Notes under the pieces: generated by a model
What the model was told of the DNA's origin: nothing
The model's database searches: none
Seen by the model: only the letters and a program-made list of their open reading frames with translations
NCBI GenBank assembly: GCA_964596545.1
Contig: CAZQUP010000001.1
Span: 70,181-134,180, forward strand
Direction of reading: 5' to 3'
Source of the DNA: an uncultured Desulfatibacillum sp.
GTDB lineage: Bacteria > Desulfobacterota > Desulfobacteria > Desulfobacterales > SpSt-501
DNA length: 64,000 bases
Shown here: in pieces, positions 10,974-38,485 of the stretch
How the letters are laid out: each line of letters opens with the position of its first letter
How positions within the stretch are numbered: the stretch's first letter is position 1
Translations under genes and position numbers: made by a program

Positions 10974-11032
10974 AAACGGACCGCCCCGTCCCCCCCGCCC
11001 GCGCGGCCGGGCGACGGAGCGCCGAAAGATTG

Positions 11033-12751
11033 ATGCCCGTGTTCGCACTTCGCGCACCAGCCGCTACCGCCCGCTTCCGACCCGCGGGGCCTGAACCGAA
11101 ACCTGTGGAGGCGGAGGCTCTCGGCCAATCCCTTCTTGAAGTCACGCGCCCCCTTTTCCTCGTGCGCCGCGGCGCGAAGCTCCTTCTGGCCCGCTCGGGG
11201 ACGGTCAGGTTCGCTCCCGTACCGGAGGGCGAGGAAGACAGCCTGCCGCTGGTCGCCTGGGTCCCCCCCCTGCACCCTGAGGCCTTAGGCGATCCCGGCT
11301 TTCGTGCCGCCTATGGGCTGCGCTATGCCTATGTGGTGGGCGAGATGGCCAACGCCATCACCTCGGTACGGATGGTCCAGGAGGCCGGAAGTGCGGGGAT
11401 GATCGGCTTCTTCGGCACCGGAGGCCTGCTTCCCGCGGAGGTCGAAGAGGCGATCGACGCCCTCCAGCGCACGAGCCCGCAGGTTCCCTTCGGAGTCAAC
11501 CTGATCCACACCCCCGGCGACCCGGAGCTGGAGAACCGTTTGGCGGAGATCTTTCTCGACCGCGGCGTCACCGTCGCCAGCGCCTCGGCTTTCGTCGAGC
11601 CGACCCCCGCGCTCAGCCTCTTCCGCTTGCGGGGCATCTACCGCCTTCCCGACGGCCGCATCGTCTGCCCCAACCGTCTCATCGCCAAGGTCTCCCGCGT
11701 GGAAGTGGCGCGGCGGTTTCTCGCGCCGCCTCCGGCGCGCCATCTCGAGTTCCTGGTGACCCGAGGGGCCCTGCGGCCGAAAGAGGCCGAACTCGCCGCC
11801 TACATCCCGCTCGCCGAGGATCTCACCGCCGAGGCCGACTCCGGAGGCCACACGGACAATCGGCCGGCCATCGCGTTGTTGCCCACGATCCTCGCCCTGC
11901 GCGACGACTGCCGCCGTGAGCACGGCTACGCCCACCTGCCCCGGGTCGGTCTCGCCGGCGGGATCGCCACCCCGCTTTCGGCGGCCGCGGCCTTCGCCAT
12001 GGGCGCAGCCTTCGTCATGGCGGGCTCGGTACACCAAGGCTGCGTCGAGGCCGGGACCTCGGAGGCGGTTCGCCGCCTGCTCGCCGAAGCGGGGCAGGCC
12101 GACGTCGCGATGGCCCCCGCGGCCGACATGTTCGAACTCGGGGTCAAGGTCCAGGTGCTCAAGCGCGGCACGATGTTCGCTCAGCGCGCGGCGAAGCTCT
12201 ACGAGCTTTTTAAAGCCCACGAGCGCTACGAGGAGATCCCCCCGCCGCAGCGGGCGGTCCTCGAGAAGGATTTCTTCCGCCGCTCCTTCGAAGAGGAGTG
12301 GGAGGCGACCCGCGCCTTCTTCCGCGAGCGGGACCCTCGGCAGATCGAGATCGCCGAGCGCAACCCCCGGCACAAGATGGCGCTCGTCTTTCGATCCTAC
12401 CTGGGGCGCTCTTCGCGTTGGGCGATCGCAGGCGAACCCTCGCGGCGCATGGATTATCAGATCTGGTGCGGTCCGGCGATGGGCGCCTTCAATCAGTGGG
12501 CGAAGGGAAGCTTCCTCGAGGATCCCGCCGAGCGCCGCACCGTCACCGTGGCCGCAAACCTCCTCTTCGGCGCGGCCGTAGCCGTGCGCGCCTCCTGGTT
12601 GCGCAACCAGGGAGTCGCCGTGCCCTCCGAAGCCGCGGTTTTCCGGCCTCTCCCCCTCGAGCGGATCGAGGCGTTGTTGGGAGGAACCCCCTTCCGTCCG
12701 GCCGGATCGCCCGGTGAGTTGCCATCCGGGGACGAATCGGCTATGAAATAG
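11033..12751 (+). CDS. pfaD: PfaD-type trans-acting enoyl reductase (nitronate monooxygenase fold)
   Basis: YGLRYAYVVGEMANAITS, GFFGTGGL, PFGVNLIH, AEADSGGHTDNRP, GGIATP and KVQVLKRGTMF fit PUFA-synthase ER proteins. The track start at 11030 is TTG; the ATG at 11033 is preferred. Confidence 0.85.
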   Translation: MPVFALRAPAATARFRPAGPEPKPVEAEALGQSLLEVTRPLFLVRRGAKLLLARSGTVRFAPVPEGEEDSLPLVAWVPPLHPEALGDPGFRAAYGLRYAYVVGEMANAITSVRMVQEAGSAGMIGFFGTGGLLPAEVEEAIDALQRTSPQVPFGVNLIHTPGDPELENRLAEIFLDRGVTVASASAFVEPTPALSLFRLRGIYRLPDGRIVCPNRLIAKVSRVEVARRFLAPPPARHLEFLVTRGALRPKEAELAAYIPLAEDLTAEADSGGHTDNRPAIALLPTILALRDDCRREHGYAHLPRVGLAGGIATPLSAAAAFAMGAAFVMAGSVHQGCVEAGTSEAVRRLLAEAGQADVAMAPAADMFELGVKVQVLKRGTMFAQRAAKLYELFKAHERYEEIPPPQRAVLEKDFFRRSFEEEWEATRAFFRERDPRQIEIAERNPRHKMALVFRSYLGRSSRWAIAGEPSRRMDYQIWCGPAMGAFNQWAKGSFLEDPAERRTVTVAANLLFGAAVAVRASWLRNQGVAVPSEAAVFRPLPLERIEALLGGTPFRPAGSPGELPSGDESAMK

Positions 12752-15700
12752 TGTTTCCGGATTTATCCCCCGCAAACGGCCTGCAGCTGGACCCTCCTGG
12801 AGGTGAAGGGGAGATCGAATTCGAGGTGACCCCGACGTTGAATCGCCGCCCCGCCGCCATCGTGGGCATGGGATGTTTTTTCCCGCAATCGCCCGGCTTG
12901 AAAGGCTACCTCCGGCTTCTGTTCAACGGCCGGGACGCCGTGAGCGAGGTCCCTCCGACCCACTGGTCGCGCGAGGACTATTTCGACCCCGACCCCCGCG
13001 CGCGCGACCGCGTCTATTGCGCCCGCGGCGGGTTTCTTCCGCCCGTCGACTTCGATCCCGCCGCCTTCGGCATCCCTCCGGCCCTGCTCGAAGCGACCGA
13101 CACTTCCCAGCTGCTCGCGCTGCTCGCCGCCCGGGCGGCGCTCGCCGACATGGGCCTGCCCTACGACCCCGCACGCACGAGCGTGATCCTCGGCGTAACG
13201 GGCACCCAGGAGCTGGTGATCCCGCTCAGCTCCCGCCTCGGCTTTCCCCGCTGGCGCCGGGCCCTCGCCGCAGCGGGTGTTTCCGATCAAACCGCCGAAG
13301 AGGTGATCCGCCGCATCTCCGATTCTTACGTCGAGTGGCAGGAAAATTCGTTTCCCGGCCTGCTCGGCAATGTGGTCGCCGGGCGCATCAGCAACCGTTT
13401 GAACCTCGGGGGCACCAACTGCGTGGTCGACGCCGCCTGCGCGAGCTCGCTGGCCGCCGTGCACATGGCGCTCCTCGAACTCGAAGCGGGCCGCTGCGAT
13501 CTCGCCCTCACCGGAGGGGTCGACACGCTGAACGATATTTTCATGCATATGTGTTTCGCCAAGACCCAGGTCCTCTCGGCGACGGGAGACGCCCGGCCGT
13601 TCTCGCAGCACGCCGACGGGACGGTCTTGGGCGAAGGGGTGGGGATCGTCGTTCTGAAGCGCCTCGAGGACGCCGAGCGCGACGGAAACCGTATCTACGC
13701 CGTGCTGCGCGGGCTGGGCTCCTCAAGCGACGGCCGTTCGCAGAGCATCTACGCGCCGCGCCGCGAGGGCCAGGTCGAGGCGCTGCGCGCCGCTTACGCC
13801 GAGGCCGGGGTCGACCCCGGCACCGTGGGGCTGATCGAGGCCCACGGCACGGGGACACGGGTCGGCGACCGGGTGGAGTTCGAGGCCCTCTGTGAGGTGT
13901 TCAAGAGCGCCGGAGCCCCCCTGGGCCGCTGTGCGCTCGGCTCCGTGAAATCCATGATCGGACACACCAAGGCGGCGGCGGGTGTGGCCGGTCTGATCAA
14001 GGCCGCCCTCGCCCTGCACCATCGCGTGCTCTTCCCCACCCTCAAGGCCGAAGATCCGGACCCCGCCTTGAACCTCGAAACCTCCCCTTTCCACCTATGC
14101 CGCCGCGCTCGGCCGTGGTTTTCCCCGGATGGCGCGCCGCGCCGCGCGGGGGTGAGCGCCTTCGGGTTCGGCGGAAGCAACTTCCATGCGGTCCTCGAGG
14201 AACACGGATCCTCCCGCCGGGAAATCGGCTGGGACGGCTCCGTTCAGATCTTCGCTTTTTCGGCCGGGTCCCCCGCGGAGCTTCTGAAGGAAATTTCCGC
14301 GACGACTGCAGATCCGAAGCTTTCCGCCTCCGGGGAGGGCTGGTCGCGGCTCGCCGCCGAAACGCGCGCCCGTTTCGACCCGAACGCAGCCTGTCGGCTG
14401 CTCTTTCCTGCCTCGGATGCCCGGGAAGCGTTGGATGGACTTCAGACCGCCCGGAAGCGGCTCGTACAAGAAGCGCCCGCCGGCGATCCGACCGGCCGCG
14501 GCGTTTGCTATGGGGAAGGGGCCCCCGCGGGAGCTCTCGCCATTCTCTTTCCCGGGCAGGGAAGCCAGTACCCCGACATGGGCCGCGAGTTGATCCTGCG
14601 CTTTCCGGCGGCGCGCGAGACGATCGAGACCGCCCAGCGCGTGCTCGGCCTCAAGCCTCCGCTGGGGGATCGGATCTACCCGCCGCATCCACCCGGTCGC
14701 CCGGATGAGGAGCGCCTCCAGTCGACCGAGCTTGCGCAGCCGGCGATCGGCGCGGTGAGTCTCGCCCTCTGGAAGGTGCTGCGCGCCTTCGGCCTATCGC
14801 CTGCGGCCGCAGGCGGTCATAGCTTCGGCGAGCTGACGGCCCTCTGCGCCGCAGGCCGGATCGACGAGGAAGACTTCTTCGCGCTCGCCCGGGCCCGCGG
14901 TCGGGCGATGGCGGAAGCGCCCGCCGGAGCCATGGCGGCCGTCTTCGCTCCGCTTGCCGAGGTGGAAAGGGCGGTTTCCGAAACCGGTCTCCCGGTCGGG
15001 GTCGCCAACCGCAATGCTCCGCGGCAAACGGTGGTTTCCGGTTCCAAAGATGCCGTACAGCGGCTCGCCGCGACCCTCGGCCGGCGCGGCGTGCGGGTGG
15101 TGTCGCTTCCGGTGAGCGGGGCCTTTCACAGCCCGCTCATGACCGAGGCGAGCCAATCCTTTGCCGCGGCGCTGGAACGCGCCGATTTCGCTCCGGCCGC
15201 GCTTCAAGTCTTTTCCAGTCGGACGAAGACCCCCTTCCCCGCCGAGACGGACGCCGTCCGCCGGCTGCTCGCCGAGCAGATGCTTTTCGAGGTCGATTTC
15301 ATCGGTCTGATCGAGGCGATGTACGCCGGCGGAATCCGCTCCTTCGTTGAAATCGGTCCTCGGGCCGTTCTCTCCGGGCTGGTCGCCGAAATCCTTGCCG
15401 GACGACCGCATGCGGCCTTTTCCGTGGATTCCTCCTCGGGGCGGAAACCGGGGCTTCTCGATCTGGCGGCAGCCCTGTGCCGGATCTGTGCCTTGGGTTA
15501 CCCGCTGGATCTCATTCGATGGGACCCGGCGGAGCCGGTGGCATCCTCCTCGAGCCGTCTGCGCATTCCGATCTGCGGAGCGAATCTCGGTCCTTCCACC
15601 GACCGCAAAGGCGAAAACCCTCTACCGCCGGCCACCCCGCGGTGTCCCGGAGCCGACGACGGCCGGAATTTGAAGGCTCACCGAGAGCCGATATCGAGTT

Positions 15701-18700
15701 CATCCCGTCTTCGCGAAACGCCTATGGAAAATGAATCCTCCTCCATTCCGCCAACCCGGCGTGCGGAAGAACACCGCCGCACCCTCGAAGAGGGTCTTCA
15801 GGCCATTCGCCGAATCCACGAGCAAACGGCCCAGGCCCACGAAAAGTTCCTGGACCTGCAGCGCGAGACCACCCAGGCGCTCCTGGATCTGATCCGCGGC
15901 TCGGATACGGCGCGTTTCCCGGCGATCAGACCCTCGCAGCTTCCCGAGGGCTCAACCGTCGACCCACCCCTGCCCTTAGACCCCTCGGTCGCCCTTTCCG
16001 CCCAAGATCCCCTTTCGATTCCCGCCGCGGTCGAAATGAAACCTTCATCCCCTCCCGACCCGGCCCCGGCGGTCCGCAGCGCCGCCGCACAGGAGCCCCC
16101 GCCGCCCGAGGCTCCACCCGCACCCCAGGCCTCCTCCCCCCCGGCCACCCCCGCCCTGCAGGACGTGCTCCTCGAGGTGGTCAGCCGCCTGACCGGCTAC
16201 CCCCCGGAGATGCTCGGATTCGACCTGGACATCGAGGCCGATCTCGGCATCGACTCCATCAAACGCGTCGAAATCCTCTCCGCCCTCGAAGAAAAGATCC
16301 CCGGCCTGCGCCCCGTCACCCCCGAAGACATGCCCCGGCTCAAAACGCTCTCCGCCATGGTCTCCTTCTTCGCCGCCCCCCGGGCCGCAACACCCCCTCC
16401 CGACCCGGCCCCGGCGGTCCGCAGCGCCGCCGCACAGGAGCCCCCGCCGCCCGAGGCTCCACCCGCACCCGCCAAGTCTGTAGCGCCCGCCCCGCGGCGG
16501 ATCATTACCTTGGAGCCGGCACCGGAGATCGACCCGGTCGACGTGCAGGTGCCTTCCGGCCGCAAGATTTTCGTGACCGACGACCGCTCGGGGCTTGCGC
16601 GCGCGGTTCTTGATGTACTGAGCGATCTCGGCCTGAGCGCCGTCCTGGTGGCCGCCGACATCCTGCATCATCGGCGCGACCTTCCCCCCGCGGCGGGGCT
16701 GTTCTTCGTCGCCCGTCCCGACGGCGAAGACGGACAGCGGGAACTGCGGGACGCCTTCGAACTCACCCGGCGTCTGGGCCCGGATCTGATCGAGAGCGCT
16801 CGGCTCGGCGGGGCCTTTTTTGCCACCGTCAGCCGACTGGACGGGGCCTTGGGTTTCAGCGGCCGCAGGCTTTCCCGGCCGCTCCAGGGAGCGCTCGCCG
16901 GCCTGGCCAAAACCGCGGCGATCGAATGGCCCGAGGTCATCTGCCACGCCCTGGATCTCGACCCCGACTGGAGGGATCTGCGTACCGCCGCAAGGGCCGT
17001 CGTGCGGGAAGCGTTGCATCGCGGGCCGTTGGAAGTGGGTCTCGGACCGCACGGCCGCCTTGTGCCCCGGTTGGTGCGCCGCGAGGATCCCGCTGCCGGC
17101 CCCCTGCCGCTTGCGCCCGGCGAAACCGTGATCGTCAGCGGAGGAGCGCGGGGCATCACCGCCGCCTGCGCCGTGGAGCTCGCCCGCCGGGTGCGGCCGG
17201 CCCTGGTCCTGCTCGGCCGGACTCCGGAACCGGGACCCGAGCCCCTCTGGATGCAGGGATTGGAGGAGGAAAACGAAATCCGCCGGGCCCTCCTGCGCGA
17301 GGAATTTTCCGCGTCCTCGGCCCGGCCGGCGGAGGCGGAGAAAAAGCTCCGACTCCTGCTTGCCGCCCGGGAGGTCCGCAACACCCTGCAAACCCTGCAA
17401 GAGCTGGGGGCGCCGGCGGCCTACGTTTCCGTCGACGTGCGCGATCCCGTCCGCCTGCGCGCGGTCGTTGCCGAGGCCCGCGATCGCTTCGGCCCGATCC
17501 GCGGGCTGATCCACGGGGCGGGTGTGCTCGAGGACCGCCTGATTCTCGACAAAACCCTCGAGCAATTCGACCGCGTGATGAGCACGAAGCTCGGCGGGTT
17601 TCTTGCGCTGCGGGAAGCCCTGGGGGACGAAGAGCTTCGCCTGATGGTTCTTTTCTCCTCGGTGACGGCGCGCTTCGGAAACCGCGGTCAGGCCGACTAC
17701 GCCATGGCCAACGAGGCCTTGAACAAGCTCGCCCGCGCCGAGGCGCGGCGACGGCCCGGCTGCCGGGTCGTCGCCGTCAACTGGGGGCCCTGGGATTGCG
17801 GCATGGTGACCCCGGGCATCCGCCGCGAGTTCGAACGCCGAGGGGTCGAGCTTCTCTCCGCGGCGCAGGGCGCGGCGTCACTGATCGCCGAACTGCGCCG
17901 GCCGCCGGATGAAGAGGCGGTCGAAGTCGTGATCGGCGGGATGAACCGCCGGAAACGGCTGACGGCCTTTTCGTCGCGGAAGACCGAAGGCCTGCGGCCC
18001 CTGATCGAGCGCCGCCTCGACCTGGTGAGCCATCCCGTGCTGCGCGCCCACGTGTTGGGCGAACGCGCCGTCGTGCCGCTGGCGCTGATCGCCGAATGGC
18101 TGGGCGAAGGCGCCCTGCACGAAAACCCAGGGCTCGTGTTGGACGGATTGGAGGAGATCCGCCTGCTCAAGGGCATCCGCCTCGAGGCCTCGCCCTACCC
18201 GGTGCACATTCTGGCCGGCAAGCCCCGCGCGCGAAACGGAGGCTTCGAAGTCGACCTCGAGCTGCGCGGGGGGGAAAACGAGTCCACAGAGACGCTCCAT
18301 TGCCGAGCACGGGCCGTTCTCGCCGAGACCCACGCCTCGCCCCCCGTTTATCGCCTTCCCTCCGGGCTTTCCTGCAATCATTACCCGCGCTCCCCCCGTG
18401 AGGTTTACGAGGCCGTTCTTTTTCACGGCGAGGCGCTTCAGGGATTGCGCTGGATTCAGTGTTGCACCGCCGAGGGCATGGTCGCCGACGTCGCCGCCGC
18501 CCCCCGCCCGGAGTCATGGGTCGAAAGCCCCTTTCGCCGGAGCTGGCTCGGAGACCCCCTGGCACTCGACGCCGCCTTCCAGATGGCGAGCCTGTGGTGT
18601 TGGGAAATGAAAGGGGCGGTCTGCCTCCCGAGCGGCGTATCCTCCTTTCGCCTTTACCGGGGGCAATGGCCCGAAGAGGGGTGCCGTGTGGTGCTCGAGA

Positions 18701-18909
18701 TCCGCGATGCGAGCAGCCGAAAATTGCAAGGCGATTTCATGTTTCTCGACGCCGACCACAAACCGATCGCCCAGCTCACCGGCTTCGAGGCCGTGATCGA
18801 CCCCTCGCTCAACCGGGCCTTCAAGCCGGGCGGCATCCGCGCGGAGCCTCTCGCGCTCGGGGAGAGCGGGGTACCGGAAAGCTCCGTTCAATCCGGGAGC
18901 AGATCGTAA
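12751..18909 (+). CDS. pfaA: PfaA-type multidomain synthase: KS - AT - single ACP - KR - PKS-type DH
   Basis: GTG start overlaps the pfaD stop (TAGTG). Domain anchors: KS active-site DAACASS (Cys codon 13438-13440) with HGTGT and GHTKAAAG; AT GQGSQ and GHSFGE (Ser codon 14821-14823); ACP LGIDSIKRVEI (Ser codon 16255-16257); KR GGARGIT (17140-17154); C-terminal DH motif HVLGERAVVP. Confidence 0.9.
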   Translation: MFPDLSPANGLQLDPPGGEGEIEFEVTPTLNRRPAAIVGMGCFFPQSPGLKGYLRLLFNGRDAVSEVPPTHWSREDYFDPDPRARDRVYCARGGFLPPVDFDPAAFGIPPALLEATDTSQLLALLAARAALADMGLPYDPARTSVILGVTGTQELVIPLSSRLGFPRWRRALAAAGVSDQTAEEVIRRISDSYVEWQENSFPGLLGNVVAGRISNRLNLGGTNCVVDAACASSLAAVHMALLELEAGRCDLALTGGVDTLNDIFMHMCFAKTQVLSATGDARPFSQHADGTVLGEGVGIVVLKRLEDAERDGNRIYAVLRGLGSSSDGRSQSIYAPRREGQVEALRAAYAEAGVDPGTVGLIEAHGTGTRVGDRVEFEALCEVFKSAGAPLGRCALGSVKSMIGHTKAAAGVAGLIKAALALHHRVLFPTLKAEDPDPALNLETSPFHLCRRARPWFSPDGAPRRAGVSAFGFGGSNFHAVLEEHGSSRREIGWDGSVQIFAFSAGSPAELLKEISATTADPKLSASGEGWSRLAAETRARFDPNAACRLLFPASDAREALDGLQTARKRLVQEAPAGDPTGRGVCYGEGAPAGALAILFPGQGSQYPDMGRELILRFPAARETIETAQRVLGLKPPLGDRIYPPHPPGRPDEERLQSTELAQPAIGAVSLALWKVLRAFGLSPAAAGGHSFGELTALCAAGRIDEEDFFALARARGRAMAEAPAGAMAAVFAPLAEVERAVSETGLPVGVANRNAPRQTVVSGSKDAVQRLAATLGRRGVRVVSLPVSGAFHSPLMTEASQSFAAALERADFAPAALQVFSSRTKTPFPAETDAVRRLLAEQMLFEVDFIGLIEAMYAGGIRSFVEIGPRAVLSGLVAEILAGRPHAAFSVDSSSGRKPGLLDLAAALCRICALGYPLDLIRWDPAEPVASSSSRLRIPICGANLGPSTDRKGENPLPPATPRCPGADDGRNLKAHREPISSSSRLRETPMENESSSIPPTRRAEEHRRTLEEGLQAIRRIHEQTAQAHEKFLDLQRETTQALLDLIRGSDTARFPAIRPSQLPEGSTVDPPLPLDPSVALSAQDPLSIPAAVEMKPSSPPDPAPAVRSAAAQEPPPPEAPPAPQASSPPATPALQDVLLEVVSRLTGYPPEMLGFDLDIEADLGIDSIKRVEILSALEEKIPGLRPVTPEDMPRLKTLSAMVSFFAAPRAATPPPDPAPAVRSAAAQEPPPPEAPPAPAKSVAPAPRRIITLEPAPEIDPVDVQVPSGRKIFVTDDRSGLARAVLDVLSDLGLSAVLVAADILHHRRDLPPAAGLFFVARPDGEDGQRELRDAFELTRRLGPDLIESARLGGAFFATVSRLDGALGFSGRRLSRPLQGALAGLAKTAAIEWPEVICHALDLDPDWRDLRTAARAVVREALHRGPLEVGLGPHGRLVPRLVRREDPAAGPLPLAPGETVIVSGGARGITAACAVELARRVRPALVLLGRTPEPGPEPLWMQGLEEENEIRRALLREEFSASSARPAEAEKKLRLLLAAREVRNTLQTLQELGAPAAYVSVDVRDPVRLRAVVAEARDRFGPIRGLIHGAGVLEDRLILDKTLEQFDRVMSTKLGGFLALREALGDEELRLMVLFSSVTARFGNRGQADYAMANEALNKLARAEARRRPGCRVVAVNWGPWDCGMVTPGIRREFERRGVELLSAAQGAASLIAELRRPPDEEAVEVVIGGMNRRKRLTAFSSRKTEGLRPLIERRLDLVSHPVLRAHVLGERAVVPLALIAEWLGEGALHENPGLVLDGLEEIRLLKGIRLEASPYPVHILAGKPRARNGGFEVDLELRGGENESTETLHCRARAVLAETHASPPVYRLPSGLSCNHYPRSPREVYEAVLFHGEALQGLRWIQCCTAEGMVADVAAAPRPESWVESPFRRSWLGDPLALDAAFQMASLWCWEMKGAVCLPSGVSSFRLYRGQWPEEGCRVVLEIRDASSRKLQGDFMFLDADHKPIAQLTGFEAVIDPSLNRAFKPGGIRAEPLALGESGVPESSVQSGSRS
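16049..16125 (+). repeat. Direct repeat copy 1 (77 bp, Pro/Ala linker upstream of the ACP)
   Basis: By hand alignment this is identical over 77 bp to 16394..16470. It encodes PPDPAPAVRSAAAQEPPPPEAPPAP. Confidence 0.9.
16394..16470 (+). repeat. Direct repeat copy 2 (77 bp, linker downstream of the ACP)
   Basis: Perfect copy of 16049..16125, offset by exactly 345 bp (115 codons, one linker+ACP unit). Confidence 0.9.
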
Positions 18910-27152: not shown

Positions 27153-30100
27153 ATGGACAGGCCGTCCCCGATCGCCGTCGTCGGTATCTCCGGGCTGTTT
27201 CCCGGAGCTCACGACCTGGCGGCATTCTGGAACCTCATGACCTCCGGGCGTCCCGCGGCGGCCGAAGTCCCCCGGGAGCGCTGGAACGTCTCGCCCGAAC
27301 GGTTCGTCTTCGCCCGGCCGATCCCCGACCGTGCCTATTCGCGCATCTCCTGCCTGTTGCAGGAGCCTCCCTTCGATCCGCGTGCGGTCGAACCCGGTTT
27401 ACCGGAAGGGAAGAATCTCGACCCGATGCAGCGGATCGTGCTCCGGGCCGCGCACGACCTGCTCACAGCCCCCGGGCCTCTCCCACTGAACCGCGAGCGC
27501 ACGGCGGTCGTTCTCGCCGCGATCGTACTCCCCACCGATTCCGCAACCCGCTGGAGCTGGGAGGTCCTTGCGCCGCAAATCGAACAGCGCTGCGGTCGCG
27601 CCCTTTTTCGCAGGCCGGAAAGCTCCGCCGCGCTTCATTCCGCCGCCGCACGCGTCGCCTCGTATCCCGCCGCCCTGCTCGCACGGGTTTTCGGGCTGGG
27701 AGGCGGAAGCTTCACCCTCGATGCCGCCTGCGCTTCCTCGCTCTACGCTATAAAGCTCGCCTGCGACGCCCTCCGGGCCGGGCGGGCCGACGCCGTGGTG
27801 ACCGGGGGGGTCTCGCGCCCCGACGCCCTGTTCACCCAGATCGGCTTCAGCCAGCTGCGGGCCCTCTCTCCGAGCGGCCGCTGCGCTCCTTTCGATCGCC
27901 ACGCCGACGGCCTCGTGGTGGGCGAGGGGGTCGGGCTTTTGCTCCTCAAACGCCTCGAGGACGCTCTGCAGGCAGGGGACCGGATCTGGGGCCTGATCCG
28001 CGGCATCGGCCTTTCGAACGACACGCGGGGAAGTCTTCTCGCCCCCGATCCGGACGGCCAGTGGCGGGCCCTTTCGGCGGCCTACGCCCAGGCCGGCTGG
28101 CGGCCCGAGGAGGTGGACTATATCGAGTGCCACGGAGCGGGAACTCCCGTCGGCGATGCGGTCGAGCTGGAGAGTTTGAGCCGTCTGCGGCAGGACACCC
28201 CGGCCTGCCCCATCGGCTCGGTCAAGTCCATCATCGGCCACCTGCTCACCGCCGCGGGCGCAGCGGGAATGATCCGGGTGCTGCTGGCGATGCGTCACGG
28301 GCTCATCCCCCCGACCCTGAATTTCCGCGAGCCCCCGACCGACAGCCCGATCGCCCATGGCCGCTTCCGCATCCCCGCCAAACCCGAACCGTGGATCCGC
28401 CGCGGCGAGGGGATCCCGCGCCGCGCGGCCGTGAGCGCCTTCGGTTTCGGAGGCATCAACGGTCACCTGCTGCTGGAGGAATGGCTCGCGGATCGGCCCC
28501 GAAACCTCCAATCCTCATGCGGCCGCCCGAACGGGCAGACGGCCCTTGAGGGGGAGGAGCCGTCGTCGTCGAACGCACCCGCCGCTTCGTCACCGGTTGC
28601 GGTGATCGGTCTTGCCGCCCGAGTCGGTCCCTACCCCTCCCTGGAGGCCCTGGGACGGGCTCTCGAAAAGGGGGAAAGGCCCCTTTCGCCACCTCCCCCG
28701 CAGCGCCTGGAAAAGAGGGCGCCGTTCGCGCTTCCGGAAGCCTTTCCCCCGGGGTTATATCTCGCCGACGAACCGGCGGTGAGCCGCCGGTTCCGGATTC
28801 CGCCCGCGGAGCAGCGCGATCTGCTGCGGCAGCATGCGGTTATGCTCGAGGTCGCCGCCGCGGCCATGGATGACGCCAAATTCGATGCCCGGGTGGAGCG
28901 TCCGGCGATGGGAGCGCTGGTAGGCATCGATTTCGACTTCGAGGCGACCCGTTACGGGCTGCGCTGGCGCCTGGAAGATCTCTCAGGCGTCATGCCCCCC
29001 GAGGAGGCCGAGCCTCTTCTGGAAAACCTGTCCCCGCCGCTTACGGCCTCGCGGGTGCTCGGATCCCTCGGCAGCATGGTGGCGAGCCGCATCGCGCGGG
29101 AGTTCCGCTTGGGCGGGCCGAGCTACGCCGTGAGCGCCGAGGCCTGCTCGGGGCTGCGCGCGCTCGAGATCGCCATGCGCGCGGTTCAATCCGGGGAGAT
29201 GGATGCGGTGCTGGTGGGCGCCGTCGACCTTCCGGGCGATCCCCGACGACTCGCCGCGAAGGAACAGCCCGCCCCGCCCCCTGCGGAAGGTGCGGTCGCC
29301 TTGGTGCTCAAACGCCGCGATCGCGCCTTGGCGGACGGGGACCGCATCCGCTTGATCCTGCGCGGTGCGGGCGCGGCGGGGGGCGAAGACCAGGGAGGCT
29401 CCCTTCGCCGCGCCCTCGCGGCGGCCCTCGCCGAGGCGAACGTCCCCTCCACGGCGGTCCGCCGCGCGGTCTGCGGCGGCCCGGATCGGGGGGAGGAGCT
29501 CCGCCGTCTTCTCCCGGAAGGAACCCGGATCGAATCGGTCCTAGACCGTCTGGGGGACTCAGGGGCGGCCGGGGGGCTCTTGGCGCTCCTGCAAGCTTGT
29601 TTGTCCTCCGCGGATCCGCACGGCGAAGGGCTCACGCTGATCAGCGCCGCCAGCCCCGAGGGCCACTGCCTGCAGGTTCTGGCTGAGTTTCCATCCCCCC
29701 TCGAAAAACGATCCGGCGGGGCCGTCAAGCCGGCGACGCCGGCGGAAAGGCCCTCGGCCGGAGCCGCCTCCCCGTCCCCGGCGACACCGGGCCGCCTGGC
29801 GGCAAGCGCCGCAGAAACGATCCTCGCGCTTTCCCGTTCCGCGGCCGCCGCCCATCGGAAGTATCTCGATTTTTCCCTCGAGTTGACCCGCGGCCTCGCC
29901 GGAACCCTGGGCCGCGGGGCCATCCGCCGGGAAACGCCCGGGGCTTCCTTTTCGCCCCGGGTGCTCTTCAACCGTGCCGCCTGCCTGGAGTTCGCCCGGG
30001 GCTCCGCCGCGCGGGTACTCGGCCCGGAGTTCGCCGCCGTCGACCGCTATCCGGTGCGCGTGCGGCTTCCCGACGAGCCGCTCATGCTGGTGGATCGGAT

Positions 30101-32357
30101 TTTGGAAATCCAGGGACGCAAGGGCACCCTGGGTCCGGGGCGCATCGTCACCGAGCATGACGTCCGGGAAAACGCCTGGTACCTCGACGGCGGCCGCGCG
30201 CCGATCAGCATCACGATCGAGGCCGGCCAAGCCGACCTGTTCCTGTGCGCCTGGCTCGGCATCGATCTTGCCGTCCGAGGCCGCCGCGCCTACCGCCTGC
30301 TCGATGCCGCGGTGCGCTTTCACCGCGCCCTGCCCACGCCCGGAGAAACCATCCGCTATGCGATCGAAATCGAAAAGTTCATCCGCCAAGGGGAGACCCA
30401 TCTCTTCTTTTTCCGCTTCGAGGGCACCATAGACGGCCGACCGCTGATCACGATGCGAGGGGGATGCGCCGGATTCTTCACGGCCGAGGAATCCCTGCAC
30501 TCGGGCGGCATCGTGCTTTCCCCAGAGGAAACGGCCCCTTCCCCTGGGAAGACGCCCGCCGCGTTTTCCTGGCCGGTCCCGGAGGAGGCCGCCGCCTTCG
30601 ACGATGCGGCCCTCGAGGCCCTGCGGGAGGGGGATGCCGCGCGCGCTTTCGGACCGCTCTTCGCCGGGGTCCGCATTCCCGAAACGCTGCGTCTTCCCGG
30701 CGGCCGTCTGCGGCTGATCGACCGCATCGTTTCCTTCGAACCGCACGGCGGGCGCTACGGATTGGGCAGCATCCGCGCCGAGGCCGACATCGATCCTGAG
30801 GCCTGGTTCCTCGTTTGCCATTTCGTCGATGACCGGGTCATGCCGGGCACCCTGATGTACGAGTGCTGCAACCAGGCGTTGCGCGTGCTGTTGCTCCGCC
30901 GCGGCTGGTTCCTCGAGCGGACGGGGCTGCGCTTCGAACCGGTCCCGGGCGTGGAGGCGGTCCTCACCTGCCGCGGGCCGGTCACCCCTTCGGTGCGCCG
31001 CGTCCACTACGAGGTCCATCTCAAGGAAGCGGGGTATCGACCCGAGCCTTACGTGCGGGCGGACGCCTTCCTTTACGCCGACGGTCGGCGCATCGTGCGC
31101 TTTCGCGACCTGTCCCTGAAACTCTGCGGAGCCTCCGCCGCCGATCTCGAAGCCTTCTGGAAACCGCGAAGGGTTCCTCCCCCCTTGAACCCCACAAAAA
31201 TCCTGGTTTCCCGAGACGGCCTCGAGGATTTTGCGACCGGCCACTCCTCGGCGGCTTTCGGCGATCGATACCTCCCCTATGACGGAAACCGCCATCTCGC
31301 CCGTCTTCCCGCCCCCCCGTTTCTTTTCCTGGACCGCATCCTCGAGGCCGGGCCCCGACCCTTCGTTCTGCGCCCGAAAGGCTGGGCCGAGTCCGAATTC
31401 GACATCCGGCCCGCAGCATGGTATGTCGCGGCCGAACGCACGGGAGCCATACCTTTCTGCGTTTTGCTCGAAACCGCGCTCCAGACCTGCGGCTTTCTCG
31501 CGGCTTACCTGGGTTCGGCCTTGAAGAGCGAAAAAGATCTCTTCTTCCGCAACCTGGACGGAAGCGGGTTGCTCGAGCGGCCGCTTTCGGCGGAGGCCGG
31601 AACCCTGCGGACGCGCTGCCGCCTGACGCGCGTCTCCGAGATGGCCGACCTCATCCTCGAGCAGTTCGCCTTCGAGGTTCACGATCGGCGAGGGCTCCTC
31701 TATTCCGGCACCGCGGGCTTCGGCTTCTTCACCCGCGAGGCGCTCGCTGGACAGCGGGGGATCTCCGGTGCGCCTCAGGCACCTCCGGCGGAGACGGCGG
31801 CGGAACTCGAGCGGCTCTGGCCCGATGTCCCCCCGTTTGAGCCGACCGATGCGGACCGCGCGCCGGACGGTGGCCTGCAGCTTCCGGCGCGGGCCCTGCG
31901 GATGATCGACCGCCTCGCAGGCTGGGAGGCCCGGGGAGGAAGCGCCGGCGCCGGTCGCCTGCTCGGCTTGAAGGAGATACGCGCCGGGGAGTGGTTCTTC
32001 CAGGCCCACTTCCACGGCGATCCGGTGTGGCCGGGCTCGCTCGGCCTCGAGGCCTTGATCCAACTTCTCAAAGCCGCAGCGATCCTCAAGTTGCCTGAAA
32101 GACGGTCTACTCACCGCTTTTTCCTGCCGCCCGGCAGGCGGCACCGCTGGAGCTACCGCGGCCAGGTGCGGCCGCAGAACCGTCGGGTGCTCGTGGAAGC
32201 CGACCTCCAAGGTCTCGAAGAGCGTCCCGCGGAGTCCGTTTTCTGGGGCGACGGGCGCCTCTGGGTGGATGGATTGTGCATTTACCGGATGGAAGGCTTC
32301 GGCGTCGGCCTCGCGCCGCAACACCCGGCCGACCGGTGCCTGCGCCCGCCCCGCTGA
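27153..32357 (+). CDS. pfaC: PfaC-type multidomain synthase: KS - CLF-like KS - two FabA-type DH double-hotdog units
   Basis: KS DAACASS (Cys codon 27729-27731) with HGAGT and GHLLTAAG. The second KS-like domain reads SAEACSG, with Ala aligned to the KS cysteine (CLF-like). FabA-type motifs: CHFVDDRVMPG (His codon 30819-30821) and AHFHGDPVWPG (His codon 32007-32009). No AT domain is present. Confidence 0.9.
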   Translation: MDRPSPIAVVGISGLFPGAHDLAAFWNLMTSGRPAAAEVPRERWNVSPERFVFARPIPDRAYSRISCLLQEPPFDPRAVEPGLPEGKNLDPMQRIVLRAAHDLLTAPGPLPLNRERTAVVLAAIVLPTDSATRWSWEVLAPQIEQRCGRALFRRPESSAALHSAAARVASYPAALLARVFGLGGGSFTLDAACASSLYAIKLACDALRAGRADAVVTGGVSRPDALFTQIGFSQLRALSPSGRCAPFDRHADGLVVGEGVGLLLLKRLEDALQAGDRIWGLIRGIGLSNDTRGSLLAPDPDGQWRALSAAYAQAGWRPEEVDYIECHGAGTPVGDAVELESLSRLRQDTPACPIGSVKSIIGHLLTAAGAAGMIRVLLAMRHGLIPPTLNFREPPTDSPIAHGRFRIPAKPEPWIRRGEGIPRRAAVSAFGFGGINGHLLLEEWLADRPRNLQSSCGRPNGQTALEGEEPSSSNAPAASSPVAVIGLAARVGPYPSLEALGRALEKGERPLSPPPPQRLEKRAPFALPEAFPPGLYLADEPAVSRRFRIPPAEQRDLLRQHAVMLEVAAAAMDDAKFDARVERPAMGALVGIDFDFEATRYGLRWRLEDLSGVMPPEEAEPLLENLSPPLTASRVLGSLGSMVASRIAREFRLGGPSYAVSAEACSGLRALEIAMRAVQSGEMDAVLVGAVDLPGDPRRLAAKEQPAPPPAEGAVALVLKRRDRALADGDRIRLILRGAGAAGGEDQGGSLRRALAAALAEANVPSTAVRRAVCGGPDRGEELRRLLPEGTRIESVLDRLGDSGAAGGLLALLQACLSSADPHGEGLTLISAASPEGHCLQVLAEFPSPLEKRSGGAVKPATPAERPSAGAASPSPATPGRLAASAAETILALSRSAAAAHRKYLDFSLELTRGLAGTLGRGAIRRETPGASFSPRVLFNRAACLEFARGSAARVLGPEFAAVDRYPVRVRLPDEPLMLVDRILEIQGRKGTLGPGRIVTEHDVRENAWYLDGGRAPISITIEAGQADLFLCAWLGIDLAVRGRRAYRLLDAAVRFHRALPTPGETIRYAIEIEKFIRQGETHLFFFRFEGTIDGRPLITMRGGCAGFFTAEESLHSGGIVLSPEETAPSPGKTPAAFSWPVPEEAAAFDDAALEALREGDAARAFGPLFAGVRIPETLRLPGGRLRLIDRIVSFEPHGGRYGLGSIRAEADIDPEAWFLVCHFVDDRVMPGTLMYECCNQALRVLLLRRGWFLERTGLRFEPVPGVEAVLTCRGPVTPSVRRVHYEVHLKEAGYRPEPYVRADAFLYADGRRIVRFRDLSLKLCGASAADLEAFWKPRRVPPPLNPTKILVSRDGLEDFATGHSSAAFGDRYLPYDGNRHLARLPAPPFLFLDRILEAGPRPFVLRPKGWAESEFDIRPAAWYVAAERTGAIPFCVLLETALQTCGFLAAYLGSALKSEKDLFFRNLDGSGLLERPLSAEAGTLRTRCRLTRVSEMADLILEQFAFEVHDRRGLLYSGTAGFGFFTREALAGQRGISGAPQAPPAETAAELERLWPDVPPFEPTDADRAPDGGLQLPARALRMIDRLAGWEARGGSAGAGRLLGLKEIRAGEWFFQAHFHGDPVWPGSLGLEALIQLLKAAAILKLPERRSTHRFFLPPGRRHRWSYRGQVRPQNRRVLVEADLQGLEERPAESVFWGDGRLWVDGLCIYRMEGFGVGLAPQHPADRCLRPPR

Positions 32358-32373
32358 AAGAAACCGGATCCCC

Positions 32374-33414
32374 ATGCGATTCTCCCGCGTCCGCATCGAG
32401 GCCTTCGGCTACGAGATCGCCCCCCACGTGGTTTCCTCCGCGGACCTCGAAGAGCGTCTCTCCCCCCTCTATGAGGCCTTGAGGATCCCCCGCGGGCAGC
32501 TCGAGGCGATCACCGGGATCCGCGAGCGTCGCTACTGGAGCCCGGGGTTCCGGCCCTCCGAAGGAGCGATCCGTGCCGGTCGCAAGGCACTCGAGACGGC
32601 CGGCCTCCACCCGCGGGAAATCGGGATGTTGATCTACGCCGCGGTTTGCCGCGAGCACCTCGAACCGGCGACCGCCTGCACGGTGGCCGACGGGCTGGGC
32701 ATCGCTGCCGATTCGCAGATCCTCGATCTCTCCAACGCCTGTCTCGGCGTCCTGAACGGGATCCTCCAGGTGGCCTGCGCGATCGAACTCGGCCACATCC
32801 GCGCCGGGCTCGTCGTCGCCTGCGAAACGGCGCGTGAAATCGTGGATCTTACGATCGAACGGCTGAACCGCGAACCCTCCATGGAGACGCTCCGCAAGAC
32901 GCTCGCCACCCTGACCGGCGGTTCCGGGGCGGCCGCCGTGCTTCTGGTCGACGCCGCCCACCGCCCCGGAGGCCGACGGGTGCGCGGGGGAGTATGCCGC
33001 AGCGCCCCCCAACACCACCGACTCTGCACGTGGGGGCCGGACACGGGGTTCCCCGAGGGCCGGGCCCACATGGCCGAGACCGATGCGGCCGAAGTCCTGC
33101 GCCACGGCGTCGCCTTGGGCGTCGAAACCTTCGCCGCCTTCCGGAGCGAGCTCTCCCTGCCGGAGGGAAAACCGGACAAGATCATCTGCCACCAGGTCGG
33201 GGCTACCCACCAGCGCACCTTTCTGGACGCCGTCGGCATCGATCCGGAACGCGACTTCACGACCTTCCGCCACCTCGGCAACACCGGGACCGTGAGTCTG
33301 CCCCTCACGGCGGCCCTGGCCGAAGAGCGCGGTTTTCTCGAGGCCGGAGATCTCGTCGGGCTGCTCGGCATCGGAAGCGGGCTGAACTGCCTCATGCTCG
33401 CCGTCGACTGGTAA
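32374..33414 (+). CDS. oleA: OleA, thiolase-superfamily head-to-head acyl condensing enzyme
   Basis: Internal ATG of track ORF 32269..33414, 16 nt after the pfaC stop. REHLEPATA, DLSNACLGVLNG (Cys codon 32740-32742), HQVGATH and the C-terminus LLGIGSGLNCLMLAVDW closely parallel recalled X. campestris OleA (RDYLEPSTA, DVANACLAFING, LLGIGSGLNCSMAEVVW). Confidence 0.85.
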   Translation: MRFSRVRIEAFGYEIAPHVVSSADLEERLSPLYEALRIPRGQLEAITGIRERRYWSPGFRPSEGAIRAGRKALETAGLHPREIGMLIYAAVCREHLEPATACTVADGLGIAADSQILDLSNACLGVLNGILQVACAIELGHIRAGLVVACETAREIVDLTIERLNREPSMETLRKTLATLTGGSGAAAVLLVDAAHRPGGRRVRGGVCRSAPQHHRLCTWGPDTGFPEGRAHMAETDAAEVLRHGVALGVETFAAFRSELSLPEGKPDKIICHQVGATHQRTFLDAVGIDPERDFTTFRHLGNTGTVSLPLTAALAEERGFLEAGDLVGLLGIGSGLNCLMLAVDW

Positions 33415-33420
33415 ACGGCC

Positions 33421-34320
33421 GTGAACGACTGGCGCGCTCTCTACCCTTTCCGCTCGCGGTTCCTCGCGGTGAACGGCCGCCGTATGCACTACGTGGATGA
33501 GGGCCGCGGCGCCCCGCTCGTCATGGTGCACGGCAACCCGACTTGGTCGTTCTTTTTCCGCTCCCTGATCGCCGGCCTCTCGGGTCGCTTCCGTTGCCTC
33601 GCCCCCGACCACATCGGCTGCGGGCTCTCGGAGCGCCCCGCCCCCCGCGGCTACGGCTTCCGCTTGGCGGATCGCGTGGCGGATTTCACGGCCTGGATGG
33701 AGCAGGTGGTCCCCGAAGAGCCCGTCACCCTCGTGCTGCACGACTGGGGCGGAATGATCGCCTCCGCGTGGGCGGTCGGGCGTCCCGAACGGATATCCCG
33801 GCTCGTCGTTCTGAACACCGCGGCCTTCTGCAAGCCGGAAGAAAAACCGCTTCCCCGGGTGCTCGCGCTGCTGCGGCGCCATCCGCGCACGGCGGCCGTT
33901 CTCGTCTGCGGCCTCAATCTCTTCACCCGCGGCGCGGCCCATACGGCGACGGCCCGCGGGCTTTCGCCCGCGGCGCGCGCCGGGCTGCTGGCACCCTATC
34001 GCGGCGGCTGGAAGCGACGAATCGCGCTGCTGCGGTTCGTCCTGGACATCCCGCTTTCGCCCGCCGACCCGAGCTGGCCCACGGTCGCGGCGGTTGATCG
34101 CGCCGTCGGGCGGCTGCAAACAAAGCCTCTCCTCCTCCTCTGGGCGGAGAGGGACTTCGTCTTCGACGGCGACTATCTCGCCGAATGGCGCCGGCGCTTT
34201 CCTGCGGCGGAGGTGCACACTTTTCCGGATGCAGGCCATTACCTGCTCGAGGACGAGCCCGTCGCCGCTCTCACGCGGATCGCCGATTTCCTCTCCCGCA
34301 CGGGGGCCTCCCCCGATTGA
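33421..34320 (+). CDS. oleB: OleB, alpha/beta-hydrolase (haloalkane-dehalogenase-like) beta-lactone decarboxylase
   Basis: GTG start lies 6 nt after oleA. MHYVDEGRGAPLVMVHGNPTWSFFFR and nucleophile elbow LVLHDWGG (Asp codon 33742-33744) are present, and the gene sits within ole order. Confidence 0.8.
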   Translation: MNDWRALYPFRSRFLAVNGRRMHYVDEGRGAPLVMVHGNPTWSFFFRSLIAGLSGRFRCLAPDHIGCGLSERPAPRGYGFRLADRVADFTAWMEQVVPEEPVTLVLHDWGGMIASAWAVGRPERISRLVVLNTAAFCKPEEKPLPRVLALLRRHPRTAAVLVCGLNLFTRGAAHTATARGLSPAARAGLLAPYRGGWKRRIALLRFVLDIPLSPADPSWPTVAAVDRAVGRLQTKPLLLLWAERDFVFDGDYLAEWRRRFPAAEVHTFPDAGHYLLEDEPVAALTRIADFLSRTGASPD

Positions 34321-34399
34321 AAAAGCCCGCTCCTTGCGGTAGGGGAAGGCGCCGGGCGGGGTATCCGCCCCCCCGGCTTTCCGAAAACCCGATCGCCGG

Positions 34400-37687: not shown

Positions 37688-38485
37688 TCAGGCCGCCGGG
37701 GCCGTCTCCAGAAACTCGAGCAGCAGCCGGTTGAAACGCTCCGCCTGCTCGACGTTGGCCAGATGGGAGGCCGAGGGAAGGATCACCAGACGCGATCCCG
37801 CGATCCGCTCGTGGATCGCCTGCGCCGCCGCCACCGGAGTGCCGGGATCCTCCTCGCCGACCACGATCAGTGTAGGAATGCCGATACGCGGCAGCTCGCC
37901 CAGCAGATCGAGGCCGCAGATCGCCTCCGCGCAGCCGACGTAGCCCTCGACCGGCGTCCGCAGGAACAGACGCCGGATCAGGGCCACCCCCGGCCCCTCG
38001 GCTGCAAGAAACCGCGGGGTGAACCAGCGCGCAAGCGTCGCCTCGACCAGCGCGGCCATCCCTCCGCGGCGCGCCAGCGCGATGCGCTCCCGGAGGGCCT
38101 GCGTCCCTTCGGGCGGGATCCGGGCGCTTGTGTCTCCGAGGATCAGGCGCACGATCCGCCCGGGATGCCGCAGCGCGATCACCTGGCCGATCATGCCTCC
38201 CAGGGAGATCCCCGCAAAGCTCGCCTGCGTTACACCGAGGGCATCGAGCAGGGCGACCGCATCGGCAGCGAGTTCGGAGAGCGAGTACGGCGCGGGGGGG
38301 ACTTCGCTTTCCCCGTGTCCGCGGATGTCGTAGCGCACCACGCGGAAGCGGGACTCGAGGGCCGCCAGTTGCGGATCCCAGAGGTTGAGGTCGGTTCCCA
38401 GAGCGTGGCTGAGCAGAACGACGGGGGCGTCCCGCGGGCCGCTCACTTCGCAGTTCGTCTCGAGGGTCGCCGTGCGGATGCGCAT
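37688..38485 (-). CDS. Alpha/beta hydrolase, 3-oxoadipate enol-lactonase-like
   Basis: Internal ATG (MRIRTATLETN) of track ORF 37688..38959. VVLLSHALGTD, nucleophile elbow GISLGGMIG and late His (PSASHLANVE) are present. Confidence 0.75.
   Translation of the reverse strand: MRIRTATLETNCEVSGPRDAPVVLLSHALGTDLNLWDPQLAALESRFRVVRYDIRGHGESEVPPAPYSLSELAADAVALLDALGVTQASFAGISLGGMIGQVIALRHPGRIVRLILGDTSARIPPEGTQALRERIALARRGGMAALVEATLARWFTPRFLAAEGPGVALIRRLFLRTPVEGYVGCAEAICGLDLLGELPRIGIPTLIVVGEEDPGTPVAAAQAIHERIAGSRLVILPSASHLANVEQAERFNRLLLEFLETAPAA

Follow-up and report, generated by a model that had tools for sequence, protein, structure and literature searches.

The 64-kb stretch of DNA analyzed here (hereinafter the window) carries a pfaA-like gene whose single ACP is bracketed by two identical 77-nt copies of a linker-coding sequence. 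This linker repeat recurs in a sister species with its position and offset conserved, its copies evolve in concert, and among sister strains at least one very recent transfer has taken place between the copies. We consider it likely that the pair represents a real, inherited, minimal ACP array of 1.22 units, which is still recombinationally active and whose copies are kept identical by exchange, and we infer that the source genome has an ACP count of one. The gene and the elements of the repeat are arranged as follows:

12751..18909, + strand: pfaA-like gene, 2052 aa, KS-AT-ACP(x1)-KR-DH (Pfam, TIGR02813)
16049..16125, + strand: linker repeat copy 1, 77 nt, encoding PPDPAPAVRSAAAQEPPPPEAPPAP, upstream of the ACP; GC 0.86, GC skew -0.36
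16126..16393, + strand: unique part of the 345-nt unit, 268 nt, made up of the spacer QASSPPAT, the ACP domain (HMM match 16153-16374), and the spacer PRAAT
16255..16257, + strand: Ser1169 codon TCC, predicted phosphopantetheine attachment site in LGIDSIKRVEIL, from the sequence and reading frame
16394..16470, + strand: linker repeat copy 2, 77 nt, same as copy 1, downstream of the ACP

The membership of the encoded protein in the PfaA family, as supposed in a prior sequence-only reading of this DNA, is borne out by its TIGR02813 (omega_3_PfaA) score of 1301.7 bits, against a cut-off of 1010.1, together with the domain order KS-AT-ACP(n)-KR-DH: Pfam places the KS at residues 33-432, AT at 599-876, PP-binding at 1139-1205, KR at 1459-1682, and PS-DH at 1881-2013. 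A public protein collection contains an entry (P0001) that is 100% identical to it. The ACP had been described as the only one, and both the Pfam PP-binding model and a purpose-built, family-specific ACP HMM indeed recover a single domain (residues 1134-1209); with these models the window protein lacks the multiple tandem ACPs that are a hallmark of Pfa synthases. Its phosphopantetheine serine had likewise been placed correctly, at codon 1169 inside an LGIDS motif.

The two linker copies, which had been aligned by hand, match at 77 of 77 nucleotides with a start-to-start offset of 345 nt, that is, 115 codons in frame. Both are in frame within the pfaA ORF and encode PPDPAPAVRSAAAQEPPPPEAPPAP, with the preceding residue being S for copy 1 and P for copy 2. 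The identity ends on both sides of the repeat; on the left, two further matching bases lie beyond a T/C mismatch at 16048/16393. Copy 1 is preceded by AAACCTTCAT and followed by CAGGCCTCCTCC, the start of the ACP, and copy 2 is preceded by GGGCCGCAACAC, the end of the ACP, and followed by GCCAAGTCTGTAGCG. The 77-mer is present exactly twice in the window, even with three mismatches allowed, and in none of 100 dinucleotide-preserving shuffles, and the pair is the sole long near-perfect direct repeat found in the window. At its 345-nt period the repeat extends over 422 nt, or 1.22 units, and hence falls short of the at least two complete head-to-tail linker+ACP units of a tandem ACP array; Tandem Repeats Finder reported no array at 16049-16470 because the feature comprises only 1.22 copies. 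The period itself is nevertheless that of a tandem array, spanning one ACP plus linker in frame and lying inside the family range: adjacent ACPs in relatives are spaced 93-138 aa apart (median 108; 149 adjacent pairs), in agreement with the proposal that the offset is one linker+ACP unit.

A fully syntenic locus from a sister species (L001; protein 86% and DNA 89% identical to the window) has a 70-nt linker repeat at the same 345-nt offset, with the same right boundary and a left boundary within about 8 nt. The linker sequence itself differs, identity being 65-70% between the species; between the copies of one genome it is 100% in the window genome and 88-100% in those of the sister species. 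The 69 shared linker columns comprise 41 invariant ones, 23 that are fixed between the species yet common to both copies, 5 that belong to a polymorphic patch, and no copy-specific ones; with 23 concerted and 0 copy-specific differences, the copies are more alike within a genome than are the orthologues, as in concerted evolution of a tandem array. The presence of this layout at only 89% DNA identity, with an unchanged offset and nearly unchanged boundaries, points to an ancestral arrangement homogenized by concerted evolution, and the common ancestor of the window and sister species would already have had linker-ACP-linker. The earlier suggestion of a contraction, if taken as recent and private to the window, is not supported by this comparison.

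Evidence for ongoing exchange comes from the sister assemblies ERZ6863929, ERZ6864144, and ERZ6863697, which are only 6-8 nt apart over 8159 nt. In each pairing of these strains, five of the 6-8 differences make up one 5-nt patch, seen as a/b, b/b, or a/a in the upstream/downstream copies, and outside it the strains differ by at most 3 SNPs per 8 kb. As the clustered 5-nt difference occurs in identical form in both copies, it must have been transferred between them; strictly, the pattern demands one conversion only, a/b to a/a, if b/b is ancestral. The prior view that the substrate for recombination is still in place is thus upheld by a repeat that acts as such a substrate in the sister species. 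All four assemblies (the window and the three sister-species ones) encode a 2052-aa protein with one ACP.

The generalization that PUFA synthases usually carry several ACPs agrees with the relatives, which mostly have 2-5: among the best 120 homologues, 11 have one ACP and 109 at least two (78 with two, 26 with three, 1 with four, and 4 with five). Where the contig name is of long-read style, 12 of 12 relatives have at least two ACPs; the single-ACP loci seen are all on short-read-style contigs, though this comparison runs across different subclades. ACP number is labile in the clade, for instance between L002, with two ACPs sharing a 250-nt perfect repeat, and L003, a 92% DNA-identical relative with one. 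The sequence-only reading had held that orthologues uniformly having a single ACP without repeated linkers would speak against a recent contraction; the orthologues give a divided answer, the closest one having a single ACP with repeated linkers, and the next clade including both L003 and L004, which are of this kind, and L002, which has two ACPs. Flanking linker repeats were found in no other single-ACP relative, at the DNA level or on protein inspection, and the linker-ACP-linker layout is therefore not general to single-ACP PfaAs. In the relative L034, which has the order linker-ACP-linker-ACP, a 61-nt linker segment with 95% identity lies upstream of both ACPs. The downstream linker is 68-70 aa long in five species, with or without the repeat, a constancy more readily explained by replacement, or by selection on linker length, than by the linker being a mere remnant of a deleted unit. 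A metagenome scan with a degenerate 47-nt ACP-core pattern recovered four loci, all more distant (66-85% nucleotide identity per aligned segment), and no further member of the window/L001 lineage.

An alternative to an inherited single-ACP layout is that at least two perfectly identical 345-nt units exist in the source genome, and possibly in those of the sister species as well, and that the assembler crossed the resulting self-loop once to yield linker-ACP-linker. This output is the shortest route through a loop of this kind in an assembly graph, expected for any n≥1, and the preponderance of multiple ACPs among both the best homologues and the long-read-style contigs is in keeping with it. 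Relatives also have long perfect repeats (250 nt in L002, 207 nt in L051, and an inferred length of about 268 nt in the Tomsk_70_44 MAG), and short-read assemblies are disrupted by tandem ACPs, with at least 12 of 80 related loci ending inside an ACP. However, collapse requires identity across the whole 345-nt unit, and no examined multi-ACP locus has a perfect repeat equal to its period, the longest being 250 of 318 nt. Moreover, the usual failure mode in the related MAGs examined is a contig break and not a silent collapse, with many pfaA genes ending precisely k-1 nt inside a perfect ACP repeat (L014 and L036 at k141, L065 and L070 at k127, and L071 at k191), whereas the window contig and three sister contigs of 127-155 kb pass uninterrupted through the site. 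The four assemblies, which are independent and come from two species, agree on the 345-nt offset and the 2052-aa product, and at the site they display neither the contig breaks present in other MAGs with perfect ACP repeats nor any disagreement; in L001 the product is still 2052 aa despite its copies being distinguishable (a/b). The protein collection yielded no same-species fragment with a different junction; this is a weak point, as the search seemed length-limited, a 197-aa linker-ACP-linker query having returned only proteins of at most 344 aa and at most 69% identity and missed P0001 itself. Taken together, we regard collapse as unlikely, though by no means negligible.

The window copies, being perfectly identical, could also be a passive relic of a multi-ACP array that shrank shortly before sampling, alike for lack of time and with no continuing exchange, and the difference in ACP number between the close relatives L002 and L003 (two versus one at 92% DNA identity) lends this some plausibility. 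Against it, the layout, boundaries, and offset recur in a species whose DNA has diverged by 11%, and there both copies jointly show linker changes at 23 of 69 positions; a relic of such age would show divergence between its copies. In the sister strains, the patch moves between copies while no more than 3 other SNPs accompany it per 8 kb. Parallel, equally recent contractions would be needed in two lineages, and we deem this reading very unlikely. Finally, the length of the repeat equals a commonly used SPAdes k of 77, and the GC skew of its region is the most negative within the pfaA gene (-0.2 to -0.42 over 15870-16470), features that could mark it as a k-mer-length artefact or as a GRINS-type skewed element, respectively. 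The former is countered by the homologous sister repeat, which is 70 nt long with about the same boundaries in three assemblies; hence, biology and not k sets the length. GRINS, gene-conversion-promoting repeats within PKS genes, are defined as duplicated regions of more than 500 bp with over 80% identity in the same synthase cluster and with mean absolute GC and TA skews both above 0.15 (PMC8256042). The window repeat, at 77 nt, is too short, and though the GC skew of the 345-nt unit (-0.325) passes, its TA skew (-0.104) fails; nor do other relatives show strong skew in their ACP arrays. Either explanation is therefore exceedingly improbable.

If the pair is indeed an inherited array with exchanging copies, the linkers would be held identical by continuing non-reciprocal recombination between them, either through gene conversion or through equivalent cycles of unequal exchange or slippage that pass briefly through 2-ACP or 0-ACP forms and then contract. 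Identity over 77 nt exceeds the minimal length for RecA-dependent recombination in E. coli. The layout may itself have arisen when an array of at least two ACPs lost one ACP core, the L034 form being one deletion away, and the repeat could still be able to expand or delete the ACP through unequal exchange. We think it quite unlikely that the conserved layout is a selected, reversible dosage switch instead of a neutral leftover. Were it one, the identical 70-77-nt linkers would let the ACP unit amplify (1 to 2 to n) or contract by unequal exchange at high frequency, such that a population would always include cells differing in ACP number and hence in pfa/ole lipid or olefin output; selection for the switch would then account for the repeat staying perfect across speciation.

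The locus is a modest variant of known tandem-ACP biology. ACP number is known to determine how much product Pfa-type synthases turn over (PMC5067506; Jiang et al., 2008, as cited in PMC3098273). With the tandem-ACP PfaA proteins of PUFA and secondary-lipid synthases (Jiang et al., 2008, cited in PMC3098273; Hayashi et al., 2016, PMC5067506; Trujillo et al., 2013, PMC3585217), the window protein shares the family, the domain order, and the ACP signature LGIDSIKRVEIL. Like them, it has an ACP flanked by Pro/Ala-rich linkers, with a 115-aa unit inside the 93-138-aa period of the relatives; unlike them, it has one ACP and 1.22 units in place of the 2-5 near-identical units of relatives. Further, the window duplicates the linker and not the ACP core, whereas the typical arrays of relatives homogenize the ACP cores while their linkers diverge. 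The comparison also extends to gene conversion and GRINS in megasynthases (Nivina et al., 2021, PMC8256042), where intragenic repeats of one genome likewise resemble each other more closely than their orthologous counterparts, implying non-reciprocal exchange. Like GRINS, the window repeat is strongly C-rich and skewed; however, it lies in a disordered linker and not across catalytic domains, and its host is an iterative Pfa-type synthase and not a modular assembly line.

Natural change of ACP copy number is little documented, and the window and its sister species offer a clean, small example: a single ACP sits between linker copies with demonstrable sequence exchange, and its close relatives in the clade have one or two ACPs. 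There is also a practical warning, namely that ACP counts from short-read MAGs are lower bounds; metagenomic surveys of ACPs in PUFA and secondary-lipid synthases should allow for linker-ACP-linker or ACP-linker-ACP output as a minimal loop traversal.

Partner genes of the synthase are found on either side of pfaA, outside the repeat:

11030..12751, + strand: pfaD-like enoyl reductase gene (TIGR02814, 590.8 bits, above the cut-off of 449.25; Pfam NMO and FabD_helical_ins)
27153..32357, + strand: pfaC-like gene (KS-CLF-FabA-type dehydratases; Pfam ketoacyl-synt x2 and FabA x3; NCBIfam matches)
32269..37140, + strand: oleA-, oleB-, oleC-, and oleD-like genes (about 32269-33414, 33421-34320, 34400-36124, and 36142-37140)

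The pfaD-like gene is directly upstream, its end touching the pfaA start codon, and the pfaC-like gene lies 8 kb downstream of pfaA; the locus thus has both the pfaD ER and the pfaC KS-CLF-DH2 partners, the latter with two KS-type and three FabA-type stretches. No pfaE (PPTase) was recovered among the window ORFs covered by a non-exhaustive scan. The best named matches of the ole-like genes are the olefin beta-lactone synthetase (604.9 bits, below the cut-off of 900) and the OleD 2-alkyl-3-oxoalkanoate reductase (385.3, below 580). These oleABCD-like neighbors suggest a product context of long-chain olefin or secondary lipid, with a possible olefin-precursor role for the synthase (PMC3098273). 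Comparable ole-linked 'pfa-like' secondary lipid clusters from anaerobic Deltaproteobacteria and Planctomycetes form Types I/J/K of Shulse and Allen, whose scheme keeps single-ACP clusters where the remaining organization fits (PMC3098273). The window resembles these in having pfaD before pfaA, linked ole genes, and an apparently anaerobic, Desulfobacterales-like lineage. It differs in that pfaD-pfaA and pfaC-oleABCD are about 8 kb apart, and while Type I is described as having a pfaBC fusion, no Pfam AT domain was found in the window pfaC-like protein (PMC3098273). A genome scan gave Desulfatibacillum sp. Tomsk_70_44 as the top match (71-72% identity), and sequence similarity places the locus in an approximately Desulfobacterales-like lineage. 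The split between pfaD-pfaA and pfaC-oleABCD, occupied by about 8 kb of unrelated genes, is a layout kept in five species.

The sole acyl carrier protein (ACP) domain of the PfaA-type protein in the window (P0001; 1301.7 bits on TIGR02813, PfaA, cut-off 1010.1) is bracketed by two linker copies that match at 100% over 77 nt with a start-to-start offset of 345 nt:

12751–18909, plus strand: pfaA-like ORF of 2052 aa, with KS, AT, one PP-binding, KR and PS-DH domains
16049–16125, plus strand: linker repeat copy 1, in frame in the ORF, encoding PPDPAPAVRSAAAQEPPPPEAPPAP
16255–16257, plus strand: ACP serine codon TCC (codon 1169), the serine lying within LGIDSIKRVEIL
16394–16470, plus strand: linker repeat copy 2, in frame in the ORF, encoding PPDPAPAVRSAAAQEPPPPEAPPAP

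Re-checking the window sequence returned the same coordinates, peptide, offset and serine codon as the sequence-only reading had given. The repeat is bounded on both sides, its left edge being marked by one mismatch followed by two more matching bases. Searches with the 77-mer, allowing up to three mismatches, recovered these two sites only in the 64-kb window, and 100 dinucleotide-preserving shuffles of the window yielded no matches; no other long near-perfect direct repeat is present within the window.

Using an HMM built from the family on the 120 best homologues, we counted one ACP in 11 proteins, two in 78, three in 26, four in 1 and five in 4, with a start-to-start period of 93–138 aa (median 108). 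An offset of 115 codons thus falls within the natural range of unit lengths, and the proposal that the feature represents one unit of a tandem-ACP architecture holds. The four nearest relatives display full synteny with the window, and their ACP counts lend mixed support to the suggestion of a contracted array: the sister-species protein P0002 (86% amino acid identity, 2052 aa) has a single ACP with repeated linkers, as that suggestion would have it, whereas P0004 (72%) and P0005 (70%) each have one ACP with no flanking linker repeat around it, and P0003 (69%) has two, whose units are perfectly identical over 250 nt with a period of 318 nt (L002:13325–13574 and 13643–13892). The two-ACP locus L002 and the single-ACP locus L003 of the same clade are 92% identical in DNA, and close relatives therefore vary in copy number; this difference may be genuine or may stem from collapse in one direction or the other (L002 lies on a SPAdes contig, NODE_54, with coverage 91; L003 has coverage 5.4), and the two ACPs of L002 are a lower bound.

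In the sister species, P0002 is encoded by locus L001, where a direct repeat of 70 nt surrounds the single ACP, likewise with an offset of 345 nt. When the two window copies and six copies from the sister species are aligned ungapped, their repeat blocks fall in the same columns, with a coincident right boundary and left boundaries within about 8 nt of each other, even though the linkers are only 65–70% identical between the window and the sister species, versus 89% for the gene overall. Of 69 shared columns, 41 are invariant, 23 differ between the species but are the same in both copies of each genome and 5 form a polymorphic patch, with none showing a copy-specific (orthologous) pattern. Judged from these columns, the pattern across the two species has the signature of concerted evolution, and the linker-ACP-linker layout is ancestral to both; the two copies have been homogenized repeatedly or recently in each lineage separately. 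The feature is thus an inherited arrangement evolving in concert, and the earlier idea of a recent contraction private to this genome is contradicted by the sister species, which has the same layout and concerted copies. A 100-nt stretch of the ACP core (16251–16350) is 98% identical in DNA to L001, against 64–66% for the linkers beside it, an unusually strong conservation that includes synonymous sites and may stem from codon constraint or exchange.

The 90% cluster of P0002 comprises three proteins, each of 2052 aa and each from its own assembly (ERZ6863929, ERZ6864144 and ERZ6863697, on contigs of 155, 152 and 127 kb). The other two differ from L001 at 8 and 6 positions over 8159 aligned nt, and in each comparison five of these differences constitute the same clustered patch, GGCGCAAGC versus CCAGGAAGA; one comparison places this patch in the upstream copy, the other in the downstream one. 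With the two versions of the patch termed a and b, the upstream/downstream haplotypes across the three assemblies are a/b, b/b and a/a, supporting the contention that the substrate for recombination is still live. Because the window sequence is b-like, the ancestral state was probably b/b; if so, at least one copy-to-copy transfer of the a patch is needed, against a background of at most three other SNPs in 8 kb. The patches are 34 nt and 23 nt away from unique sequence flanking their own copies, close enough for every k-mer or read above about 50 nt to tie each to the correct copy; hence, which version stands in the first copy and which in the last should be reliably assigned, however many copies are hidden.

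The single ACP might instead be an assembly collapse, wherein an identical multi-ACP array was output as one unit. Where units are perfectly identical, the shortest self-loop path in a de Bruijn graph reads linker-ACP-linker, in which case the assembly proves just one or more ACPs; moreover, the majority of relatives have at least two, as do all 12 of the related loci with long-read-style contig names, and long perfect ACP repeats are known (250 nt in L002, 207 nt in L051). Nevertheless, related MAGs fail by contig breakage: among 80 related pfaA loci from species-representative MAGs, at least 12 terminate within an ACP (L014 [DYEU01000035.1], L036 [DYEU01000023.1], L028, L030, L033, L042, L046, L053, L054, L065, L070, L071 and L077), and the break follows the assembler k given in the contig names, the distance from ACP start to contig end being 128–134 nt at k127, 146 nt at k141 and 204 nt at k191. 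In the Tomsk_70_44 MAG, two contigs (L014 and L036) meet mid-ACP with a 12-nt overlap; at k=141, such a junction indicates at least two ACPs and a concealed perfect repeat of about 268 nt, in agreement with the repeat boundaries of L002. By comparison, the window contig and three sister contigs run through the site at equal length, and none of the arrays examined is perfect over its whole period (best, 250 of 318 nt). We accordingly regard collapse as an unlikely, minority possibility beside the inherited single-unit arrangement. As 77 is a common SPAdes k, we also considered a k-mer artefact, which is unlikely because the homologous repeat of the sister species is 70 nt.

Had a single unit simply been duplicated and then lost again by homologous contraction, no flanking repeat would be left, and the linker-ACP-linker layout consequently needs an extra step. 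In the related locus L034, a 61-nt linker segment (95% identical) lies upstream of each of two ACPs (linker-ACP-linker-ACP), and the present layout would result if a form like this lost its second ACP core. The ACP end and a conserved KIFVTDDR motif are 68–70 aa apart in each of the five species, whether or not the repeat is present (16375–16584 in the window; P0002–P0005), despite the downstream linker sequence being unalignable between the two clades. The downstream copy therefore replaces an older linker and adds no length, which would fit either selection on linker length or an ectopic conversion; the constancy of length suggests that the ACP-to-KR linker may be under such selection. In single-ACP homologues further away, the stretch up to an A(P/E/A)R(R/Q) anchor is of similar length, 33–39 aa.

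The feature is a small variant within the well-known biology of tandem ACPs, and of modest interest. ACP number controls productivity (PMC5067506, PMC3585217), and the practical worth of the feature is a caution on ACP counts from short-read MAGs, which, with contigs breaking inside ACPs in step with k, are lower bounds. The genes around it are as follows:

10022–10927, plus strand: XerC/XerD-like tyrosine recombinase gene (Phage_integrase and SAM-like N domains), just upstream of pfaD
11030–12751: PfaD-family enoyl reductase gene, adjoining pfaA upstream (TIGR02814, 590.8 bits versus 449.25)
27153–32357: PfaC-like KS-CLF-dehydratase gene, about 8 kb downstream of pfaA
32269–37140: oleA-, oleB-, oleC- and oleD-like genes, after the PfaC-like gene
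38443–39612, minus strand: CofD-like 2-phospho-L-lactate transferase
39552–41603, minus strand: aldehyde:ferredoxin oxidoreductase
43115–47297, plus strand: cellulose-synthase subunit BcsB and adjoining GH8 glycosidase

The pfa genes (11030–37140) are thus split into pfaD-pfaA and pfaC-oleABCD by about 8 kb of unrelated genes, namely those for a DHH/CBS protein (minus strand), an ACT protein, DUF711, amino-acid ABC transporter parts, a CDP-alcohol phosphatidyltransferase and a flavoprotein. This order is common to all five species as far as visible, L001–L004 being covered up to the pfaC start and the ole genes confirmed in the window alone. The XerC/XerD-like gene occupies the same place in L001–L004, indicating conserved synteny rather than a mobile element. 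Among species-representative genomes, the relatives are nearly all MAGs of Desulfobacterales; the closest with a name is a Desulfatibacillum sp. MAG (71–72% amino acid identity). The locus is similar to the pfa-like clusters that Shulse and Allen tied to olefin synthesis in anaerobic Deltaproteobacteria (PMC3098273). The oxidoreductase, CofD-like and BcsB/GH8 genes match an anaerobic lifestyle and have no relation to the repeat. Two long high-GC3 ORFs, of 626 aa (47231–49111, minus strand) and 410 aa (4828–6060, plus strand), have no Pfam match; the latter is kept beside an SPFH/zinc-ribbon gene in L001–L004.

In its conversion and strong C-rich skew, the window repeat resembles GRINS, a class of skewed repeats inside modular PKS genes that foster gene conversion and are defined by a length >500 bp and a TA skew >0.15 (PMC8256042); it falls short of both thresholds and is not a GRINS. 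Strong skew was not found in the ACP arrays of other relatives. The segment comprising the upstream linker, ACP and second linker copy (15870–16470) is the most C-rich and most negatively GC-skewed part of the gene (−0.2 to −0.42 in 150-nt windows, versus a gene mean |skew| of 0.10), and the skew jumps back to about 0 right at the end of the repeat, at 16471. It is not confined to the Pro/Ala linkers, the ACP core being skewed as well (−0.25).
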